From: Gemmatimonadota bacterium
Lineage (GTDB): Bacteria; Gemmatimonadota; Gemmatimonadetes; Gemmatimonadales; GWC2-71-9
NCBI GenBank assembly: GCA_022563595.1
Contig: JADFNB010000001.1
Coordinates: forward strand, 65,416-129,415
Length of the DNA stretch: 64,000 bases
Direction: 5' to 3'
Shown here: piece by piece, positions 3,233-59,633 of the stretch
Numbering within the stretch: the stretch's first letter is position 1
Layout: the number at the start of each line of letters is the position of its first letter
The notes under the pieces: model-generated
What the model was told of the DNA's origin: nothing
The model's database searches: none
What the model saw: the letters and a program-made list of their open reading frames with translations, nothing else
Program-made: the position numbers and the translations under genes

Positions 3233-3867
3233 TCGTGGAGCGCCCGCCCCACGATCACGCCCTCCAGTCCGAGCTGCCGCGCGCGCGCGATCTCGTCCAC
3301 GCTACCTACGCCGCCCGCCAGAATGATCCCGGCCCCCCGGCCGACCAGGCGCACGGCGCCTTGGAGATCAGCACCCACGAGCGTACCATCACGATCGAGG
3401 TCGCGGTACACAATCGTCGTAACGCCACAGGCCACCACGCGATCCACGATCTCTTCCGCACTGCCGGCTACGGTGCCCGAACCGAGCCGGGCGGTGGGGA
3501 GGCCGGCGCGGACCTCGAGGTTCACGCCCAGGCGCTCGGGACCGAGTTCGCGTGCCAGTGGAGCCAGTCCCGCGATCAGTTCGGTCCCTACGATCACGCG
3601 TGCAACCCCCCAGCCCGTCGCGGCGCGCGGCAGTGCCGGATCGCTACAGCCACCGCCGAGTTGCACCCGCGCGCCCGCTATTTGCGCGATCTGCCGAATG
3701 GCGGCTGTGTTGTCGCCGCGGCCGAACACGCGATCCATGTCCACGACGTGGAGCCACCGCGCGCCGGCACGGCACAACGCGGTGGCCTCAGTCACGGGGT
3801 CAGCCGAACCGGCTGAGCCGCGGGCTACTCGACCACCCTCGATGTCGATGGCGGGATAGATCTGCAC
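3190..3867 (-). CDS. hisA: HisA/PriA-family (beta/alpha)8 isomerase (ProFAR isomerase-like)
   Basis: MQIYPAIDIEGGRVAR at the N-terminus and YRDLDRDGTLVG later. These are the two catalytic-Asp regions typical of HisA/HisF-family barrels. Confidence 0.7.
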   Translation of the reverse strand: MQIYPAIDIEGGRVARGSAGSADPVTEATALCRAGARWLHVVDMDRVFGRGDNTAAIRQIAQIAGARVQLGGGCSDPALPRAATGWGVARVIVGTELIAGLAPLARELGPERLGVNLEVRAGLPTARLGSGTVAGSAEEIVDRVVACGVTTIVYRDLDRDGTLVGADLQGAVRLVGRGAGIILAGGVGSVDEIARARQLGLEGVIVGRALHECRFTLAEALACSA

Positions 3868-15699: not shown

Positions 15700-17156
15700 G
15701 CCGCAGGCGACCCCAACGCGTCGAGCACGATAACACGCTCGTCGAACGGGTGTTTCTCTGTCCCGAAGATCTGGTATGTCTCGTGGCCTTTCCCCGCCAG
15801 GAGCAAGCAGTCGCCCGGCGCCAGCATCGTGAGGGCACGATGGATGGCGTCCTGGCGATCCAGGATACGAAGATGTGGGACTTCGGCCATTCCCGCCGCG
15901 ATGTCGTCGAGGATACGTTCTGGGTCCTCGGTGCGAGGATTGTCCGCGGTCAGGATCACGACATCAGCCTCGCTCGCGGCGATCTTCCCCATCACCGCGC
16001 GTTTGCCCCGGTCTCGGTCTCCTCCGCAGCCGAACAGCACGATCAACCGCGCTGCGGTCACCCGCCGGAGGGTGCGGAGAACCCGCAGCATGGCGTCGGG
16101 CGTATGCGCGTAGTCGCGCAGAACCGTGTAGCGCTCCGACACGAGCCGTTCCATCCGACCCGGGACCTGCGGCGCGTCACGCAACGCACCCGCCACGGCC
16201 TCCGGTTCACCGCCTAGACCCCACGCCGCCGCCGCCGCCGCGAGAGCGTTGCTCACGTTGAACTCGCCGAGGAGCGGCAGCACTGTGCGCGTCTCGTAGG
16301 TCTCGAACCGAATTGTGAGCGCGCTGCCGGTGGCGTCCGCCTCCACCGCGACCGCCCGCACCGTGGCGTCCCGGTGGACGCCGTAGGAGATGCGTCGCAC
16401 CCGGTCGCGCGACGGGAGCGCCTCCCATGCCGGATCGTCGGCGTTGATGACCTCGATGCCGTCATCTTCGATCTGGTCGGAGAGGAGCGCCTTGGCTGCC
16501 AGGTAGGCGTCGAGCTCGCCGTGATAATCGAGGTGCTCGTGTGTCAGGTTGGTATAGACGCCCGCCTGGAACGAAAGCTCGGCGGTGCGGCGCTGGTGGA
16601 GCGCGTGCGATGAGATCTCCATCACGACCGTCCGCACGCCACGATCGCGCAGCGCGGCGAGTGTAGCCTGCAGCTCGACGGGGCCGGGCGTCGTGAGCCC
16701 GGTGGCGTCGGGCAGGCGTTCTCCGGCCCCGCCCACCACCCCAAGGGTTCCCAACGCCGCCACGTCGCCCGCCGCGTTCATCAGATGGCGGGTCAGACTC
16801 ACGGTCGTCGACTTCCCGTTGGTGCCGGTGACACCGACGAGCCGGAGCGCGTCACCGGGCCGGTCGTACCATGTGGCGGCCGCAACCGCCGCCGCGATCC
16901 GGCTGTCCCGCACGACCACTTGGGGAATGGCCGCCTCGACCACTCGGGTGACCAGCGCAGCCACCGCACCGCGGGCAGCGGCGTCGGCCACGTAGTCATG
17001 ACCGTCGGCGACCGTACCTTGGACGGCGCAAAACAGGACCGCACCGTCAACGCGCCGCGAGTCGTCGACCACACCGGCGATCTCGGGTGCCGCGTCGGGG
17101 GCGCGGACCAGCTCGCCGCGCGCATCCAGCGCGTCGGCTATGCGTCGCAACTCCAT
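15696..17156 (-). CDS. murE: UDP-MurNAc-L-Ala-D-Glu--2,6-diaminopimelate ligase
   Basis: VTGTNGKSTT P-loop. The ADNPRTEDP (DNPR) motif is characteristic of meso-DAP-adding MurE. Confidence 0.95.
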   Translation of the reverse strand: MELRRIADALDARGELVRAPDAAPEIAGVVDDSRRVDGAVLFCAVQGTVADGHDYVADAAARGAVAALVTRVVEAAIPQVVVRDSRIAAAVAAATWYDRPGDALRLVGVTGTNGKSTTVSLTRHLMNAAGDVAALGTLGVVGGAGERLPDATGLTTPGPVELQATLAALRDRGVRTVVMEISSHALHQRRTAELSFQAGVYTNLTHEHLDYHGELDAYLAAKALLSDQIEDDGIEVINADDPAWEALPSRDRVRRISYGVHRDATVRAVAVEADATGSALTIRFETYETRTVLPLLGEFNVSNALAAAAAAWGLGGEPEAVAGALRDAPQVPGRMERLVSERYTVLRDYAHTPDAMLRVLRTLRRVTAARLIVLFGCGGDRDRGKRAVMGKIAASEADVVILTADNPRTEDPERILDDIAAGMAEVPHLRILDRQDAIHRALTMLAPGDCLLLAGKGHETYQIFGTEKHPFDERVIVLDALGSPAA

Positions 17157-19093
17157 CAGAGTGACCCCGCCCGCGCGCAGAATAGCGTCACCATCCCGCC
17201 CGGCTCCACCGAATCTCCCGCCACCGGACGTGAGCGCACCACGATGTCCCCCACGACCTCGACCCGTGAGTTCAGCCCGGCCTTGTGCAGCCGGCGGACC
17301 GCCTCACGCAGGTTCAATCCGGTGATGTCGGGCACGAGGCGGGGGCCGCGCACGGGCCGCGCGGAGGTGTCCGGCCAGGCCACCACGAACGGAACGGTGC
17401 CGGCATCCACCGGCACGACCGGGATCGGGAGCGGAGGGATCCCGCGCGCCAGGCGGCTCCGGTCGAGCGCTGCCGTTTGCGCGGCGAGTACCTGCTCGAG
17501 AACCGCGCGGGTGAGGGGGGCCGCGGTCAATGTAGCGTAGGTCCCGCGCGGGTTCTCCAGCTTCACGATCATGACCAGCTGGGGATCGTCCGCGGGAAAG
17601 AGCGACGCGAACACCGCGATGTGCGAACCCGGGACGTAACCACCCGGACCGGCGACCCGGGCCGTTCCCGTCTTGCCTGCGACCTCATAGGTGCTGAGCG
17701 CCGCGCTGGCGCCGGTTCCGCCGCGTGCCGTGGCGGAGCGGAGCATCGCCCGCAAGCGTCGGGCGATCTCCGGTGTCACTACCCGACGCACCGGTTCCGG
17801 ACGGTGCGAGTAGGTCACCGAGCCGTCCGCACGACGGATCTCGCGCACCAAGGTAGGGCGGAGGAGAATCCCGTCATTCGCGATCGCCGCATACGCGAGA
17901 GCGAGCTGCAGCGGGGTCACCGCGATCTCGTATCCGATGGCCAGTGCGGCCGCCGTCGTGCCACTCCATTTACGGGGCCGCCTGAGAATGCCCCGGGATT
18001 CGGCGGGATACTCGATACCGGTCGGGGAGCCGAAACCCATGTCACGCAGCATACCGAATTGTTCCACCGGGCGGAGCCGGGAGGCGAACTTCACCATTGC
18101 GATGTTGCTCGAGAACCTGATCGCCTGATCGAGCGTTATCCACGCAACGTCCAGTTCGTGATCGTCTACGAGCGTGCGGTGCGGCAGCTCCCAACGCCCG
18201 CCCTCGCCGTATACCGTATCGGTGGCCACGACCCGGTCATGGACCAGCAACGCCGCCGCGGCGAAGATCTTCGCCGTCGACCCGGGCTCGAACACCGTGG
18301 TAAACGCGCTCGCCGGGGCAGATCCGTCGGACCGGCGGGATGCGACGGCCAGTACCTCACCAGACTCCGGCGCGAGCACGACGACGTCTCCGCCATCGGC
18401 GCCAAAACGGTCGACGGCCTCCGCCAGCGCGTTCTCCACGATCTCCTGTATGCTCATGTCGAGCGTGAGCTGGATGTCGTGACCGCCGACGGGGAACGCG
18501 CTCAACCGTGACGGCGATTCGTATACCCGGCCGCGGCCATCCCGAATCACGACGGCGCGCCCCGGGGTCCCCGCCAAGAGCGAATCGAACACCCGCTCGA
18601 TGCCACCCGCCGGCCGGCCGGCCGCCGGAGGACGACCGAGTACGGAGCGCGCGAAGTCCGGGTCGGGATAGAACCGCGTGAAGACCGGCGACAGGTGGAC
18701 CCCGCGCAGCCGGCGTAGCGGGTGCACCTGCGCGGAGCTGAAGGGACCGTCGAAGTACGCCCACCGCCTGCGGAGCGCGCGCTGCACCTCAGGCTCCGAG
18801 AGCCCCAGTTGCGATCCGATCAGCCGCGCGGCGGCGGCGGGATTTCGCAGCTCGTTGGGCGCGAGCCCGACGTGGAAGCTCTCCTGCGTGGTCGCGAGCG
18901 GCACACCGTTCCGATCGTACAGTACACCGCGGCGCGCGGGAAGGACGACGGTTTCGGTCCGCTGGCTGTCGGCGAGCGCCGCATAATGGCTGCCCCGGAC
19001 GAGCTGTACTTGGGCGGCCCGGATCACGAGGACGGCGATCCCGATCGCGAACGCGATTCCCACTGCCGTCAATCGGACCTCGGGCTTGGCCAT
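17156..19093 (-). CDS. ftsI: Class B penicillin-binding protein FtsI (PBP3) with a C-terminal PASTA domain
   Basis: Transpeptidase motifs STAK (EPGSTAKIF), SSN and KTGTA. The last ~60 aa (VPDITGLNLREAVRRLHKAGL...GDIVVRSRP..G) look like a PASTA domain. Confidence 0.93.
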   Translation of the reverse strand: MAKPEVRLTAVGIAFAIGIAVLVIRAAQVQLVRGSHYAALADSQRTETVVLPARRGVLYDRNGVPLATTQESFHVGLAPNELRNPAAAARLIGSQLGLSEPEVQRALRRRWAYFDGPFSSAQVHPLRRLRGVHLSPVFTRFYPDPDFARSVLGRPPAAGRPAGGIERVFDSLLAGTPGRAVVIRDGRGRVYESPSRLSAFPVGGHDIQLTLDMSIQEIVENALAEAVDRFGADGGDVVVLAPESGEVLAVASRRSDGSAPASAFTTVFEPGSTAKIFAAAALLVHDRVVATDTVYGEGGRWELPHRTLVDDHELDVAWITLDQAIRFSSNIAMVKFASRLRPVEQFGMLRDMGFGSPTGIEYPAESRGILRRPRKWSGTTAAALAIGYEIAVTPLQLALAYAAIANDGILLRPTLVREIRRADGSVTYSHRPEPVRRVVTPEIARRLRAMLRSATARGGTGASAALSTYEVAGKTGTARVAGPGGYVPGSHIAVFASLFPADDPQLVMIVKLENPRGTYATLTAAPLTRAVLEQVLAAQTAALDRSRLARGIPPLPIPVVPVDAGTVPFVVAWPDTSARPVRGPRLVPDITGLNLREAVRRLHKAGLNSRVEVVGDIVVRSRPVAGDSVEPGGMVTLFCARAGSL

Positions 19094-19096
19094 CGT

Positions 19097-19384
19097 TCAG
19101 CGCATCTCCGGCGCAGGTACCTGCAGAATGACGATCTCTGTGTCGGCGGGCAAGCGCAGCCCCAAAGACTCGGCCCGTGGGATCAGGATCGCGCGGCTCC
19201 CGCCCTCCCGGATGCGTCGCAGGAGAACGGCCTTTTCGGCTTCCGCGGCGGACCGTTCCGTGCGCACTTCCACCAGATCGACGGCCGCCACGAGCGCCGA
19301 GGTCTGTCGCGTGTTCACCCAGACGAGCACGCCGAGCAGGAACGCCAGCCAGACGGCGAACCAGTAACGGCCCTTAGCTGCCAT
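19097..19384 (-). CDS. ftsL: FtsL-like cell division protein
   Basis: 95-aa single-TM protein (WFAVWLAFLLGVLVWV) followed by a short coiled-coil-like region. Canonical position between rsmH and ftsI. Confidence 0.7.
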   Translation of the reverse strand: MAAKGRYWFAVWLAFLLGVLVWVNTRQTSALVAAVDLVEVRTERSAAEAEKAVLLRRIREGGSRAILIPRAESLGLRLPADTEIVILQVPAPEMR

Positions 19385-20285
19385 GAGTCCGCTCGAACAC
19401 CCTGAGCTTGGCTGAGCGCGCGCGCGGGTTGGCGGCGATCTCGTCCGCGCTGGGGAGGATCGGCCGTCGTGGCGTGAGGGTGCCGAGCGGTGCGCCGCGA
19501 CACGTACAGATAGGCTGGCCCGGAGGGCAGATACACGAACGCGCCCATTCCCTAAACGCGTGCTTTACAATGCGATCCTCGCCCGAATGGTAGGTGATCG
19601 CAGCGAGCTTGCCGCCCGGAGTGAGCGCGTCCCGCAGGACGGGCAGAGCGGTTTCAAGTTCGTCCAGCTCCCGGTTGACGGCGATCCGTACGGCCTGGAA
19701 CAGGCGGGCAAACACGGACGGGCCGGCCGTCGGACCGAGCGCCCGTCGGATGGCGTTGACCAGATCGTCGCTCACGGTCAGGGGCTTTCGTGTGCGACGC
19801 TCGACGATCGTGCGGGCGAGTCGCGCCGCGCGCCGCTCGTCGCCATAGGTGCGAAAGATGTGCGCGATTTCGTCCTGTGGCGCGCTGTTCAGCAGATCGG
19901 CGGCGTTCGCTCCGCGGTTCGACATGCGCATGTCGAGCGGCACGCCGGGACGAAACGAGAACCCGCGCGCATCGGCATCCAACTGCCGGGAGGATACGCC
20001 AAGGTCCAACAGCACCAGGTCCGGAGCGAATCGCACGATCTCCCCGATAACTCCGGCCGATCCAAAGCTCCCTTCCATCCAGCTCACCGAATCACCCAAA
20101 CGCGCCCGGCTTGCGGCCAACGCTTCCGCGTCGCGATCGACGGCGAGAACCTCCGCCCCGGCCGCCCGCAACAGGACAGCGTGTCCGCCGCCTCCCACGG
20201 TCGCGTCTACCGCCCGCAGTCGGCCGCGCGCAAGCACGGCCACGGCATCGGCGAGCACGGGAGTGTGGTAGGCCGTGGTACTCAC
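19374..20285 (-). CDS. rsmH: 16S rRNA (cytosine1402-N4)-methyltransferase RsmH (MraW)
   Basis: HTPVL, DATVGGGGH, DLGVSS.Q and ITYHSGEDR, the typical RsmH motifs. Confidence 0.95.
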   Translation of the reverse strand: MSTTAYHTPVLADAVAVLARGRLRAVDATVGGGGHAVLLRAAGAEVLAVDRDAEALAASRARLGDSVSWMEGSFGSAGVIGEIVRFAPDLVLLDLGVSSRQLDADARGFSFRPGVPLDMRMSNRGANAADLLNSAPQDEIAHIFRTYGDERRAARLARTIVERRTRKPLTVSDDLVNAIRRALGPTAGPSVFARLFQAVRIAVNRELDELETALPVLRDALTPGGKLAAITYHSGEDRIVKHAFREWARSCICPPGQPICTCRGAPLGTLTPRRPILPSADEIAANPRARSAKLRVFERTHGS

Positions 20286-20359
20286 ATCCGTAAAGAAAGC
20301 GGCCCCGCGCGTTTGGCAAGCGGGGCCGTTGATTGTGCGACAACCGAGTTGTCGCTGAG

Positions 20360-20433
20360 CGGGGCTGACGGGATTCGAACCCGCGACCTCCGGTGTGACA
20401 GACCGGCACTCTAACCAGCTGAGCTACAGCCCC
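20360..20433 (-). tRNA. tRNA-Asp (anticodon GTC)
   Basis: Minus-strand read GGGGCTGTAGCTCAGCTGGTTAGAGTGCCGGTCTGTCACACCGGAGGTCGCGGGTTCGAATCCCGTCAGCCCCG. It folds as a cloverleaf with a 7-bp acceptor stem, anticodon stem CCGGT/ACCGG, loop CTGTCAC and a GGTTCGAATCC T-loop. CCA is not encoded. Confidence 0.9.
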
Positions 20434-22250: not shown

Positions 22251-22293
22251 GCTTATCGACCTCCAAACGGGCCGTCGTCATTGGCTTGCAAGA

Positions 22294-22368
22294 TGGGCGA
22301 AGAGGGATTCGAACCCCCGACATCCTGCGTGTAAGGCAGGCGCTCTAGACCAGCTGAGCTATTCGCCC
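22294..22368 (-). tRNA. tRNA-Val (anticodon TAC)
   Basis: Minus-strand read GGGCGAATAGCTCAGCTGGTCTAGAGCGCCTGCCTTACACGCAGGATGTCGGGGGTTCGAATCCCTCTTCGCCCA. Anticodon stem CCTGC/GCAGG, loop CTTACAC, canonical T-loop. Confidence 0.9.
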
Positions 22369-22381
22369 AACGCGGCACCGG

Positions 22382-56528: not shown

Positions 56529-56873
56529 CTAGTCGCTTGCGAACGACTCCGCCAAGCGCACACCGCGCTCGAGGTGTCGCTCGAACTCGCCTAGTGCCGG
56601 CGTGCGGCTCGCTTCCAGGAGTTCCTTCAGACGGATGGTGACCTGGTGACGTTCTAGCGGCGGGTTGGTGGCTATTGAGTCCTTCCACAGCGCCTCGGTG
56701 GCGTCGTGGAACGCTACGACCTCATCGAGGTCCGCGTCGTCGTAGCGTTTGTGCAGGATGCCGTCGCGAATATCGGACACGATCCGCCCGAGGAGTATCT
56801 GGACGGATTCGCGTGCCCCCCACCCCACAGTGGAAATGCGCCGGACGAACTCCGACCGTCGGATCTCGCTCAT
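56529..56873 (-). CDS. Hypothetical protein
   Basis: ORF from the internal ATG (MSEIRRSEFV...). No recognisable motif. Coding status is inferred only from length and codon look. Confidence 0.35.
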   Translation of the reverse strand: MSEIRRSEFVRRISTVGWGARESVQILLGRIVSDIRDGILHKRYDDADLDEVVAFHDATEALWKDSIATNPPLERHQVTIRLKELLEASRTPALGEFERHLERGVRLAESFASD

Positions 56874-57203
56874 GCCTCGTTTCCCCCGTCCACCGGGCCG
56901 CTGGATGATCTCCGTGTGCTCACTATCTACCCACCTCACACCACACGAGTTCAAGTTGCACCGACGCGCCTGCCGGAGCCAACCGGCAGGCCCCCGGACG
57001 GCAACGATCGGGCGGTGCGGGCTACCCCTTCAAGAGAGCGCATGGAGGCCAACTCCTGCCATCAGAACAAGTTGCTCCTAACGGGCTATGCGATTACTGA
57101 ATCCTTCATTAGGGAATCTGTAGGAAACCCGAGCGCGCCTGTTTCCTTAGAAGTATCTTTGCGCAGTCACCTGACGTTCTGTTCCACTGCAGAAAGGGGC
57201 GAT

Positions 57204-57797
57204 ATGCACCGTACGATGATGGCCGTTGCCGTGGCGGCCTGCCTCGGCGCCGCGGCGCCGATCGCGGCACAGGATCGAGGGACACCGCTCGAGGTCGGCA
57301 CCGTAGCACCCGACTTCGAGATCCCGGGTGCTACACGCTACGGGGTGCTGCGCGAGCCGATCCGGCTGAGCGATTTCCGCGGGAAGACCGTCGTCCTGGC
57401 GTTCTTCTTCCGCGCCCGAACGCGTGGCTGAACGATCCAAATGCATGCGTACCGTGATCAGTACGCACAGATGTTCCGCAACGGTCGCGATATCGTCCTG
57501 ATCGCGATTAGCACCGATTCACCGGAAGCGCTGTTCGAGTGGGCGCGGGACGACGAGTTCCCGTACCTGTTCGCCAGTGATGAGGAGTCGCTTGCAGGCA
57601 AGCTATACGGAGCGTGGCAGACAACGCGGTCCGGGCCGATCGACAACCGGACGGTCTTCGTGGTGAACCCGGACGGCGTGATCGAGTGGGTGGCGGCTCC
57701 GTTCCGCGAGATCGATCCCACGGCCTACGAGGAACTCGGCGCCGCAATCCAGCGAAGCGCGCCGCCGCTCGAGCAAGACGAAACGAGGGAGCAATAG
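57204..57797 (+). CDS. Peroxiredoxin-like (AhpC/TSA, Bcp-type) candidate selenoprotein; in-frame TGA at 57429-57431 at the peroxidatic Cys position
   Basis: ATG at 57204 is preceded by GAAAGGGG. A signal/lipobox-like N-terminus (MMAVAVAACLGAAAPIAAQ) is present. APDFEIPG...LSDFRGKTVVLAFFFRARTRG-TGA-TIQMHAYRDQYAQMF...IAISTDS...NRTVFVVNPDGVIEWV reads through in one frame, joining track ORFs 56706..57431 and 57441..57797. T-x-x-[TGA] aligns with the Prx T-x-x-C motif. Confidence 0.65.
57446..57467 (+). promoter_or_regulatory. Candidate bacterial SECIS-like hairpin
   Basis: TGCGTAC-CGTGATCA-GTACGCA: a perfect 7-bp stem and an 8-nt loop containing GU, starting 15 nt after the TGA at 57429-57431. 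Confidence 0.45.
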
Positions 57798-57802
57798 GGG
57801 GT

Positions 57803-58357
57803 TCAGGGCGCCTGCGGGAACAGGCTGCGGAGTGCCCCACGCACGTCCTGTGACGGTCCGACCCCCGTGTACGTCACAGTCCCGGACGCGTCGAGGATGA
57901 CGATGTAGGAGGTCGTGGGGGCCTTGAAGGCGCGCGTCGCCCGCCCGCGCGTGTCCCAAACGACCGGGTATGGCACGGGATGCCGCGTGAGATGCCGGCG
58001 GATCGACCGCTTGGATTGGGCCACGGCGACGGCAACGGCGACAAAGGCCACCCGCTCGCCGAACTCCGCGTACGCCGCCTCCATCTCCGGGAGCAGCGCC
58101 GCGCAGTTCTCGCACCATGTGGCCCAGAACTCGAGCAGCATGGGTGTCGAGCCGACCAACTCCGCGAGATCGTAGGCGTCCCCGCTGAGGTCCTCGATGA
58201 CCACCGGCTCGGGACGGGCGCCGACGGGTAGGCCGACCACGTCCTCGCCGCCCTGCGCGAGCGCCGGGGTCACCATCACCGGCAGCAGCAATAACGGGAT
58301 GAGTGCCCCCAGCGTCATAAGAACCTCCGCGTTTCCAGTAAACGTCCGCGGCCTCAT
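57803..58357 (-). CDS. TlpA/ResA-like periplasmic thioredoxin (thiol:disulfide oxidoreductase)
   Basis: C-terminal 184 codons of the track ORF, from ATG 58355-58357 (ATGA overlap with the ccdA stop). Signal peptide LIPLLLLPVMVTPALAQ and active site LLEFWATWCENC (CxxC). Confidence 0.85.
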   Translation of the reverse strand: MRPRTFTGNAEVLMTLGALIPLLLLPVMVTPALAQGGEDVVGLPVGARPEPVVIEDLSGDAYDLAELVGSTPMLLEFWATWCENCAALLPEMEAAYAEFGERVAFVAVAVAVAQSKRSIRRHLTRHPVPYPVVWDTRGRATRAFKAPTTSYIVILDASGTVTYTGVGPSQDVRGALRSLFPQAP

Positions 58358-59076
58358 AGGCTCATACCCGCCGCAATGAAGTAGTACTGGGCCACACCGA
58401 GCAGAACAACTCCACCCGCCCTCTTGATCCACACCATCCATGTCCCGGCCTTTGGCAGCGCCGCCAAGGTGCCGGACGACAGCCCCACGACCACCAGGAG
58501 TGCTGTCATGCCAAGCGAGAAGACGAACAGGTAGACGAACCCCATGACGGCACTCTGCGTGGCGGCCACCCAGGTAAGGACGACCGCGAACGCCGGCGCG
58601 CCACACGGGGCGGCAACGATCCCCGATGTCGCGCCGAGCAAGAAAACCGCGGGATAGGATCCGCCGGAGAGCGACCCGACCCACCTGACGAGGCGTTCTG
58701 GCGCGGACACCGGGAACACGTCGAGCATCGCCAGCCCGAAGACGAGTATCAGGTTCCCTGCGGCGACCCGCACCCAGGGGTTTGCCGAGATCGTCCCGAA
58801 GAGCGTCCCGGTGAGCCCGGCGATCATGCCGAGCAGCGCGTAGAACAGCGCCAGGCCCGTCACGTACGTCAGTGTGAGGAGCACAGTACGGCGTCGCGAC
58901 GCCGCGCCGGCACCCGCACCGGCGAGAATGCCGGCGGTGATGGGAATCATCGGGTAGATGCACGGCGTCAGGCTGGTCACGAGACCCGCGCCGAACAGCA
59001 CGACAAGGGCGGCTAGCGGCGCGTTCTGGAGGCTCTCGGAGAGGCCTTGTACCGGTGCGAGGGCGAGGTCGAGCAT
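58354..59076 (-). CDS. ccdA: Cytochrome c biogenesis/thiol-reductant transporter CcdA (DsbD-family transmembrane domain)
   Basis: Six TM helices. Conserved Cys-Pro motifs LTPCIYPMIP and VAAPCGAP. Confidence 0.88.
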   Translation of the reverse strand: MLDLALAPVQGLSESLQNAPLAALVVLFGAGLVTSLTPCIYPMIPITAGILAGAGAGAASRRRTVLLTLTYVTGLALFYALLGMIAGLTGTLFGTISANPWVRVAAGNLILVFGLAMLDVFPVSAPERLVRWVGSLSGGSYPAVFLLGATSGIVAAPCGAPAFAVVLTWVAATQSAVMGFVYLFVFSLGMTALLVVVGLSSGTLAALPKAGTWMVWIKRAGGVVLLGVAQYYFIAAGMSL

Positions 59077-59129: not shown

Positions 59130-59633
59130 TCAGGCACGGTAGTTCCCGAAGTTCAACTCGACGCCGTAGTCCTGTTCCTTCAGAAACGCGATGACCGCCT
59201 GAAGCGTGTCACGCGACGGACTGGTGACCCGTACCTCATCCCCCTGAATCGCCGCCTGGGTTTTCTTCCACCCTTGCGCCCTGATGTCCCGCACGATCGC
59301 CCGTGCGGTGTCTGCCGGGAGACCCTGCATGAGAGCGACGTTCCGCCGCACGCGCCCCCCGGCCGCGGGCTCGTCCTCACCTGCCGTGACGTTGTCGAGC
59401 GGCACCTTGCGGCGCACGAGCTTGCTCTGGATCACGTCCCAGAGAGCGTTCATGCGGAACTCGTCGTCGGCCTCGAGCGTGATGGACGCCTTGGACCGGT
59501 CGAACTCGATCACGCAGTTGCTACCCTTGAAGTCGTAGCGTTGCCGGATCTCTTTCCGCGCCTGGTTGAGCGCGTTGTCTACCTCCTGGAGATCGGCTCC
59601 TGTCGAGACGTCGAACGATGCCTGTGCTGCCAT
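59130..59633 (-). CDS. yajQ: YajQ-family nucleotide-binding protein (UPF0234)
   Basis: ASFDVSTGADLQEVDNALNQARKEIRQRYDFKGS is a typical YajQ N-terminus. Length is 167 aa. Confidence 0.9.
   Translation of the reverse strand: MAAQASFDVSTGADLQEVDNALNQARKEIRQRYDFKGSNCVIEFDRSKASITLEADDEFRMNALWDVIQSKLVRRKVPLDNVTAGEDEPAAGGRVRRNVALMQGLPADTARAIVRDIRAQGWKKTQAAIQGDEVRVTSPSRDTLQAVIAFLKEQDYGVELNFGNYRA

Follow-up and report, generated by a model that had tools for sequence, protein, structure and literature searches.

A peroxiredoxin reading frame with one in-frame TGA

Does an in-frame TGA at the catalytic position of a bacterial peroxiredoxin gene mark a broken or divided gene, or is it read as selenocysteine (Sec)? 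The question is raised by a locus in a Gemmatimonadota bacterium (assembly GCA_022563595.1, contig JADFNB010000001.1, positions 65,416-129,415, forward strand), of which we analyzed a stretch of 64,000 nt, referred to here as the window; coordinates are those of the window unless another locus is named. On the plus strand, positions 57204-57797 comprise 198 codons that end in TAG and, on translation, hold a single internal stop, TGA at 57429-57431, in the context FFFRARTRG-stop-TIQMHAYRD (in longer form, VVLAFFFRARTRG, the stop, then TIQMHAYRDQY). The mechanically listed open reading frames (ORFs) 56706..57431 and 57441..57797 share one frame, and the translation agrees with the original prediction for this DNA, namely that the two together form one complete peroxiredoxin interrupted only by this TGA. 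From the comparative evidence set out below, we consider it very probable that the TGA encodes Sec in a functional exported peroxiredoxin. The elements of this gene (hereafter prx) are as follows.

57204..57797, plus strand: complete putative selenoprotein ORF, a 197-residue AhpC/TSA (BCP/PrxQ-like) peroxiredoxin precursor, ending in TAG (translation, Pfam, nearest structures, codon-position entropy)
57194..57199, plus strand: Shine-Dalgarno-like AAGGGG, 4 nt 5' of the ATG at 57204, a presumed ribosome-binding signal read from the sequence
57429..57431, plus strand: UGA probably read as Sec, residue 76, the peroxidatic position (TGA/TGC column across loci)
57420..57431, plus strand: T-R-G-U active-site motif (TxxU), aligned with TxxC of Cys homologs and of the BCPs 2ywn and 2cx3 in the PDB
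57408..57410, plus strand: codon of Phe69, at the site of the conserved Pro of PxxxTxxC (alignments of the family)
57648..57650, plus strand: Arg149, 73 residues after Sec, the presumed peroxiredoxin active-site Arg (invariant in the alignment)

Public annotation does not represent this gene as a unit. It appears as a 118-aa 'redoxin domain-containing protein' (NCBI) together with a 71/75-aa or 241-aa upstream ORF, and in related contigs every gene caller splits it. TGA is the usual stop codon in the window—it ends 15 of the 21 long ORFs with high third-position GC content (GC3), and the adjacent tlpA-like gene as well—and because of those 15 we conclude that it is not reassigned in the source genome. 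The window's own 118-aa product occurs on 11 contigs, and the exact whole 594-nt ORF is present in two of the three loci fetched (L171 and L173); since identical sequence occurs in independent assemblies, the internal TGA is not an assembly error.

Conservation of the TGA and alternation with cysteine

A protein search returned about 1,100 homologs, of which the best 120 were examined. Most of these are Cys forms of full length (190-200 aa) that carry a signal-like leader and the motif FFPRARTxGCTIQM, and five are shortened database entries of 115-119 aa that all start with MHAYRDQY, directly after the position of the stop. The TGA aligns with Cys both in the Cys homologs (FFPRARTxGCTIQMHAYRD; about 105 full-length) and in solved BCPs, and thus falls on the peroxidatic Cys column, as had been predicted when the stop was first said to replace the catalytic Cys.

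We then compared this codon across genomes and metagenomes. When each GTDB species was represented by a single genome, the scan gave 80 loci, almost all in Gemmatimonadota metagenome-assembled genomes (MAGs; Gemmatimonadales, Longimicrobiales) and with two complete chromosomes among them, and TGA occupied the Sec codon in 80/80; examples of complete Gemmatimonadota genomes with the TGA form are CP070716.1 and OZ252291.1. A metagenome scan seeded with Cys-type proteins also returned 80 loci, 75 with TGA and five with TGC. Together with the window, the 155 fetched loci give 156 TGA-bearing sequences, and among these 156 interrupted genes neither TAA nor TAG was found at the Sec codon. The TGA-bearing loci are 56-88% identical at the protein level, and mean entropy at codon positions 1/2/3 is 0.46/0.38/1.25 on the 5' side of the TGA and 0.50/0.35/0.97 on the 3' side; therefore, both halves are translated in the prx frame. 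The ortholog alignment suggested at the outset as a check thus yields 156 TGA sequences against five TGC loci, which is Cys/Sec alternation rather than a strain-specific nonsense mutation. A Cys/Sec pair, TGA orthologs and a bacterial selenocysteine insertion sequence (bSECIS, described below) are together the signature by which bacterial selenoproteins are called from sequence comparison, and if no functional Sec system were present, such a signature would not easily persist in 80 species.

Individual entries at this column deserve separate mention. P0008, with Trp in the protein collection, derives from a contig (L170:749-751) that reads TGA, which the source had translated as Trp. The Sec codon of P0011 reads TTA (Leu), and its hairpin is intact; the contig (L169:332-334) spans 864 bp at 1.6x coverage, and the TTA probably stems from an error in sequencing or from a loss that is very recent. 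Two further entries, P0106 (Val) and P0012 (Leu), occur as database protein entries. One contig (L166:3001-4177; GCA_945889655.1, CAMDCH010000001.1) holds tandem paralogs: a Cys-type prx (TGC at 3247, FFP) followed after 1 nt by a Sec-type prx (TGA at 3848, FFF, intact hairpin), the latter split by the gene caller into products of 79 aa and 105 aa. Three TGA-type loci (L039, L057 and L060) belong to MAGs that bear the labels Vicinamibacterales, Chloroflexi or 'Bacillati bacterium ANGP1'; they are either mis-binned Gemmatimonadota contigs or cases of occasional horizontal transfer of the prx/tlpA/ccdA module.

A constrained hairpin downstream of the TGA

The region 3' of the TGA contains a hairpin within the coding sequence:

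57446..57467, plus strand: bSECIS-like hairpin UGCGUAC-CGUGAUCA-GUACGCA, with a perfect 7-bp stem and an 8-nt apical loop (pairing, covariation, synonymous constraint)
57453..57460, plus strand: apical loop CGUGAUCA, with G at loop position 2 followed by U (loop nearly invariant)

The stem is separated from the TGA by 14 nt and the apical loop from the UGA by 21 nt. Predicted folding energy is -8.6 kcal/mol for the hairpin alone and -11.9 kcal/mol for a 52-nt segment. The published bSECIS model allows 3-9 nt in the loop and 4-16 bp in the upper stem and asks for a G in the first two loop positions (PMC13188914), together with a spacing of 16-37 nt between UGA and loop and a minimum free energy of -7.5 kcal/mol or lower (PMC13188914); the prx hairpin lies within all of these limits (loop 8 nt, stem 7 bp, G at position 2, spacing 21 nt, -8.6/-11.9 kcal/mol). 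The perfect 7-bp stem and the GU in its loop had both been noted previously, and we find them as described, with G-U at loop positions 2-3.

Comparison across loci shows that this element is constrained at the nucleotide level. Among 130 unique Sec sequences, nucleotides 19-38 after the U of the UGA are essentially invariant (codons GCG TAC CGT GAT CAG TAC GC), and third-position entropy over codons +6 to +11 is 0-0.33, compared with about 1.2-1.5 elsewhere. The third positions of the hairpin's CGT and GAT codons (T27 and T30) are kept in 124/130 of these sequences, 95% each, and in the rest of the Sec-type genes CGT makes up 10% of Arg codons and GAT 31% of Asp codons; because both codons are rare elsewhere in the same genes, codon bias does not account for the frozen codons. 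Twelve Cys-type genes encode the peptide A/T/S-Y-R-D-x-Y with freely varying codons (GCC/ACG/TCG, TAT, CGC/CGG, GAC), and the residue after QY, always Ala (GCN) in Sec forms, where it completes the stem, is A, E, P, S or Q in Cys forms. Six stem pairs are invariant, and the outermost, formed by columns 18/39 that are both synonymous, covaries: in 77 distinct genome sequences it is C-G in 36, U-A in 21, G-C in one, G-U in one and unpaired in 18, a covariation score reached by 0/500 shuffles, and in a larger set it is C-G in 61, U-A in 47 and G-C in two. A search of all loci with the hairpin core GTACCGTGATCAGTAC, allowing up to two mismatches, recovered no copy outside the prx gene family. The proposal that the hairpin is a bacterial SECIS element is thus strengthened, both by its agreement with the bSECIS model and by nucleotide-level conservation confined to Sec forms.

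In its placement within the ORF directly 3' of the UGA, and in the G-U of its loop, the hairpin resembles the bSECISearch or Escherichia coli fdhF-type consensus; it differs from the Rfam SECIS families, to which it has no sequence similarity, and from the bSECIS consensus in the unusual invariance of its 20-nt core across order-level divergence, due in part to the overlap of that core with the conserved peptide A-Y-R-D-Q-Y-A.

Weighing alternative explanations

Several observations weigh against a Sec-decoded gene or parts of that reading. Searches of the 64-kb window and of 919 kb of related loci recovered neither selA, selB, selD nor tRNA-Sec, the protein genes having been sought by tblastn with E. 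coli SelA, SelB and SelD as queries; ARAGORN detected eight tRNAs in the 919 kb of loci, none of them tRNA-Sec. This negative result means only that the genes are not nearby. The 52-nt fold of the single sequence is not unusual against shuffles (z = -0.84), and because it lies within chance the significance of the hairpin rests on the comparative data. The two conserved Tyr codons of Y-R-D-Q-Y largely dictate four of the seven pairs (GUAC/GUAC), covariation is limited to one pair, and Rfam scans at gathering and E-value thresholds gave two tRNAs and chance-level matches but no SECIS family. Export was assigned from the leader sequence by eye, and the link to the neighboring tlpA and ccdA genes is one of synteny only, with some Cys-type homologs lacking these neighbors.

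The alternative that survives best, while still quite improbable, is SelB-independent read-through, in which a near-cognate tRNA (Trp, Cys or Arg), perhaps aided by the hairpin, would place an ordinary residue at position 76. It gains from the negative search for Sec machinery in the window and related loci, and from the one homolog (P0008) translated by its source with Trp at the Sec column; as described above, the contig of that homolog reads TGA, so the Trp is an annotation artefact. A peroxiredoxin with Trp or Arg at this position would be inactive, and for Cys an ordinary codon would be simpler than read-through, whereas a conserved stop at the catalytic Cys column that alternates only with TGC is the signature of Sec, and the hairpin matches bSECIS geometry, including the required G in the loop.

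More improbable still is a split gene, in which translation would stop at the TGA to give a 75-residue exported peptide, with a 118-residue protein starting separately at ATG 57441. This is how gene callers and NCBI currently represent the locus, as separate fragments, and the ATG does lie only 9 nt 3' of the TGA. However, its Met belongs to the TIQM motif that is conserved in uninterrupted Cys forms too, inspection of the sequence ahead of it shows no Shine-Dalgarno-like motif comparable to that of ATG 57204, and the C-terminal fragment would have neither signal peptide nor catalytic residue and would miss half of the fold; moreover, all 156 interrupted genes use TGA, with the stop exactly on the catalytic Cys column. 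A pseudogene, in which a TGC/TGT to TGA mutation inactivated a Cys peroxiredoxin, would need just one base change and would fit a single-sequence hairpin that is not statistically unusual, but it is effectively refuted by a TGA common to 75 metagenome loci and no fewer than 80 genomes at the species level, with 56-88% protein identity, by purifying selection on both halves, by nucleotide-level selection on the hairpin and by the retention of neighboring genes.

We accordingly retain decoding of the TGA as Sec as the preferred reading, and from it we infer that Sec is actually inserted and that these organisms possess SelA, SelB, SelD and tRNA-Sec. The tRNA genes in the window are limited to tRNA-Asp (GTC) at 20359-20433 and tRNA-Val (TAC) at 22292-22369, both on the minus strand. 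A scan of the window for in-frame TGA codons between coding-like segments was insensitive, prx itself falling just short of the GC3 threshold (0.79 in its downstream half). It gave one candidate, a TGA at 19099 on the minus strand, which was rejected as a Sec codon: this TGA ends a gene for a small ftsL-like membrane protein, after which an ftsI/penicillin-binding-protein gene occupies the same frame. This TGA lies within a cell-division cluster (17156-19564, minus strand), between open frames of 155 and 646 codons. In the literature on Sec use in Gemmatimonadota, we found no relevant statement.

Protein family, fold and predicted export

When the stop is translated as Cys, residues 31-162 of the protein match Pfam AhpC/TSA (PF00578; E = 1.6e-25; 89.9 bits, cutoff 26), and the protein also matches Pfam Redoxin. 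It reaches no NCBIfam equivalog: the BCP model PRK09437 gives 62 against a cutoff of 140, and the model for the selenoprotein PrxU, NF040737, gives 53.2 bits against a cutoff of 270. By sequence, the nearest solved structures are the archaeal BCPs 2ywn, 2cx3 and 3hjp, in which the stretch AFYPAAFTQVCTKEMCTFRD aligns with AFFFRARTRG[U]TIQMHAYRD, such that the stop corresponds to the peroxidatic Cys, while His stands at +5, where the resolving Cys would be, and Phe stands for the Pro of the motif. Arg149 is invariant among 111 aligned sequences and, from this conservation and its spacing, is presumed to be the catalytic Arg. Fold was assessed through a natural homolog that combines Phe with Cys (P0101, about 50% identical) rather than through the window protein: its AlphaFold2 model has a mean predicted local distance difference test score (pLDDT) of 88.3, and its top Foldseek matches in the PDB are BCPs and then Prx1/2, with probability 1.00 and a target-normalised TM-score of about 0.8. 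This model indicates a thioredoxin-like peroxiredoxin fold for the family, and the best matches by sequence and by fold are alike BCPs; the prx protein is thus BCP/PrxQ-like, in a distinct lineage that, judged by its model scores, lies outside every curated NCBIfam model.

The sole Cys of the protein is C13, within the leader, and a second Cys was absent from all 259 family cores. For this reason we assign the family to a 1-Cys/1-Sec type needing an external resolving thiol. The original prediction had drawn the same picture of a 1-Sec enzyme with no further Cys in the mature part, and it holds: the +5 position is His, and the one Cys lies in the leader.

The N-terminus has the features of an export signal:

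57204..57269, plus strand: predicted signal peptide (MHRTMMAVAVAACLGAAAPIAA / QD), from homolog leaders and low model pLDDT

Leaders of homologs start with a basic N-terminus and share a stretch of hydrophobic residues as well as a conserved A-x-A-Q, and the P0101 model has low pLDDT over residues 1-20; the protein is thus predicted to be exported to the periplasm. A lipoprotein leader was also considered and is ruled out because Cys13 is not conserved in homologs, so that of the earlier suggestion of a signal or lipoprotein leader, the first part stands with support from the homolog leaders and the second falls.

An active-site proline replaced in Sec forms

Four amino acids—Pro, Thr, Cys and Arg—have been described as 'absolutely conserved' in peroxiredoxins (PMC3322552), and a 2026 selenoproteome review gives the motif of Sec peroxiredoxins as PxxxTxxU (PMC13188914). 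In the present family, the Pro position is occupied by Phe (130) or Tyr (28) in 158/158 Sec forms and by Pro in 117/120 Cys forms. Three separate Cys/Pro groups are each nearer to a Sec/Phe sequence than to the other Cys groups: P0003, P0014 and P0009 (Cys/Pro) are 87-89% identical to the Sec-type L081 versus at most 79% to other Cys groups; L140 and L148 (Cys/Pro), 83-85% to the Sec-type L107 versus at most 73%; and P0026 and P0027 (Cys/Pro), 78-79% to their nearest Sec types (L135 and L144, respectively) versus at most 75%. Among the three Cys/Sec pairs from these groups, a single column shows a change of constant direction, namely the exchange between Pro and Phe. The evolutionary evidence consists of a neighbor-joining tree and pairwise identities, and a rough neighbor-joining and parsimony count gives at least five Cys/Sec changes.

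We read this pattern in the alignments as a functional link that ties the chalcogen to the pocket residue. Any reason for such a link is speculative; one idea is that the pocket was remodelled to suit selenium. A broader proposal joins several strands: that the change from Cys to Sec is tied to that from Pro to Phe/Tyr and has switched repeatedly both ways, that FxxxTxxU/YxxxTxxU marks a selenium-adapted pocket, that a TlpA/CcdA-fed exported 1-Sec peroxidase is standard in much of Gemmatimonadota, and that the phylum is a broad user of Sec. Taken as a whole, we regard this proposal as evenly poised between right and wrong.

Intermediate combinations also occur. At L168:2501-3076 (P0035), the codon is TGC, the Pro position holds Tyr and the hairpin has drifted to ACC TAC CGC GAC CGC TAC CCC, which looks like a Sec-to-Cys reversion caught before Pro returned; P0101, as noted, combines Cys with Phe. 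These two exceptions and L169 fit a decay series.

Gene neighborhood and a possible reduction pathway

Two genes on the opposite strand converge on prx:

57803..58318, minus strand: tlpA/resA-like exported thioredoxin with WCENC, convergent with prx, proposed as the direct reductant (Pfam Redoxin, AhpC-TSA, Thioredoxin_8, Thioredoxin)
58354..59076, minus strand: ccdA/DsbD-family membrane electron transporter, 240 aa, 5' of tlpA in the same operon (Pfam DsbD_TM, E = 1.6e-46)

The pair adjoins the Sec-type prx in 64/80 genome loci and also stands beside several Cys-type homologs. The TlpA-like motif is CxxC in all loci, by which Sec in this neighbor is ruled out. Directly 5' of ccdA-tlpA lies a YajQ/DUF520 gene (59130-59633, minus strand), which adjoins prx in three other genome loci and is probably not part of the conserved module. 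On the other side, an ORF divergent from prx (56529-56954, minus strand) has no Pfam match, appears in related contigs as a called gene of 114 aa, and was not detected beside prx in other loci at E <= 1e-5; at this ORF, the contig set also contains a spurious 241-aa plus-strand call that runs into the prx leader.

The conserved tlpA-like and ccdA neighbors suggest a periplasmic reduction chain, and we infer that TlpA and CcdA act as electron donors to what is presumably a Sec-dependent peroxidase. Under the mechanism we propose, the hairpin at 57446-57467 inside the coding sequence would recruit SelB with Sec-tRNA(Sec), such that the UGA at 57429-57431 is read as Sec; the signal peptide would be removed at the AxA-Q site and the mature protein would act in the periplasm. 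There, Thr73 and Arg149 would position the selenolate of Sec76, which would attack peroxide and become a selenenic acid; this acid would be reduced by an external dithiol, given that no family member has a resolving Cys. The most likely donor would be the TlpA-like thioredoxin (WCxxC) encoded next to prx, which CcdA would recharge from the other side of the membrane, and electrons would thus pass from cytoplasmic thioredoxin to CcdA, the TlpA-like protein, the Sec peroxiredoxin and finally peroxide. A pathway of this kind, ScsB to TlpA to PprX, where PprX is an exported BCP/PrxQ peroxiredoxin, is experimentally established in Caulobacter (PMC3322552).

Significance and comparison with known systems

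Sec peroxiredoxins as such are established. PrxU of Eubacterium acidaminophilum was described in 2001, with 12 genes and five Cys-to-Sec conversions reported by 2006 (PMC1794560), and the catalogued members come mainly from anaerobes (PMC1794560). A recent catalog lists the selenoprotein family 'Prx, PF00578, TxxU' from Deltaproteobacteria and Clostridia (PMC13188914), and the same 2026 review mentions Gemmatimonadota zero times (PMC13188914). The kind of protein is therefore already known; what is new is a BCP-like lineage with predicted export, a single Sec, F/YxxxTxxU and TlpA/CcdA neighbors, widespread in Gemmatimonadota as annotated fragments.

These results bear on annotation, enzymology and ecology alike. 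At least 80 species-level genomes are mis-annotated at this gene, and a family profile would repair them, no curated NCBIfam model covering the family. The natural pairs of Cys/Pro and Sec/Phe(Tyr) proteins at 85-89% identity offer a clean system for the benefit of selenium to a thiol peroxidase and for why an 'absolutely conserved' Pro becomes dispensable or harmful. An exported Sec peroxidase, apparently fed by TlpA/CcdA and present in Gemmatimonadota MAGs from varied environments, would widen the view of bacterial selenium use, and the near-invariant 20-nt core of the putative SECIS element could serve as a simple gene probe and as a defined ligand for SelB recognition in Gemmatimonadota.

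Three known systems invite comparison. The best matches in sequence and structure are the BCPs—Sulfolobus Bcp1/Bcp4 (3drn, 3hjp, 2ywn), an Aeropyrum protein (2cx3) and Mycobacterium tuberculosis BcpB (5epf)—which have the active-site helix, the Thr and an Arg further downstream in common with the Sec-type protein, whereas identity is 21-29%, the +5 resolving Cys (CTKEMC) is replaced by His, Pro by Phe and Cys by Sec. PrxU and the TxxU family are alike in the AhpC/TSA fold, in Sec at the peroxidatic TxxC position, in an intragenic SECIS hairpin after the UGA, and in having Cys homologs and a history of Cys-to-Sec conversions; unlike them, the Gemmatimonadota Sec-type proteins always have Phe or Tyr in place of Pro, a predicted signal peptide, no resolving Cys and tlpA-ccdA neighbors. 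Finally, in the PprX-TlpA-ScsB system of Caulobacter crescentus, an exported BCP/PrxQ peroxiredoxin with a signal sequence receives electrons from a TlpA thioredoxin-like protein, which a DsbD-family transporter in turn keeps reduced (PMC3322552); the Sec-type gene has a predicted signal peptide and tlpA-like and DsbD_TM genes beside it. PprX differs in using Cys, in keeping the Pro of PxxxTxxC and in having a resolving Cys, and its partner ScsB is a three-domain DsbD homolog, whereas the neighbor of the Sec-type gene, to which the link comes from synteny, is a minimal CcdA of 240 aa.

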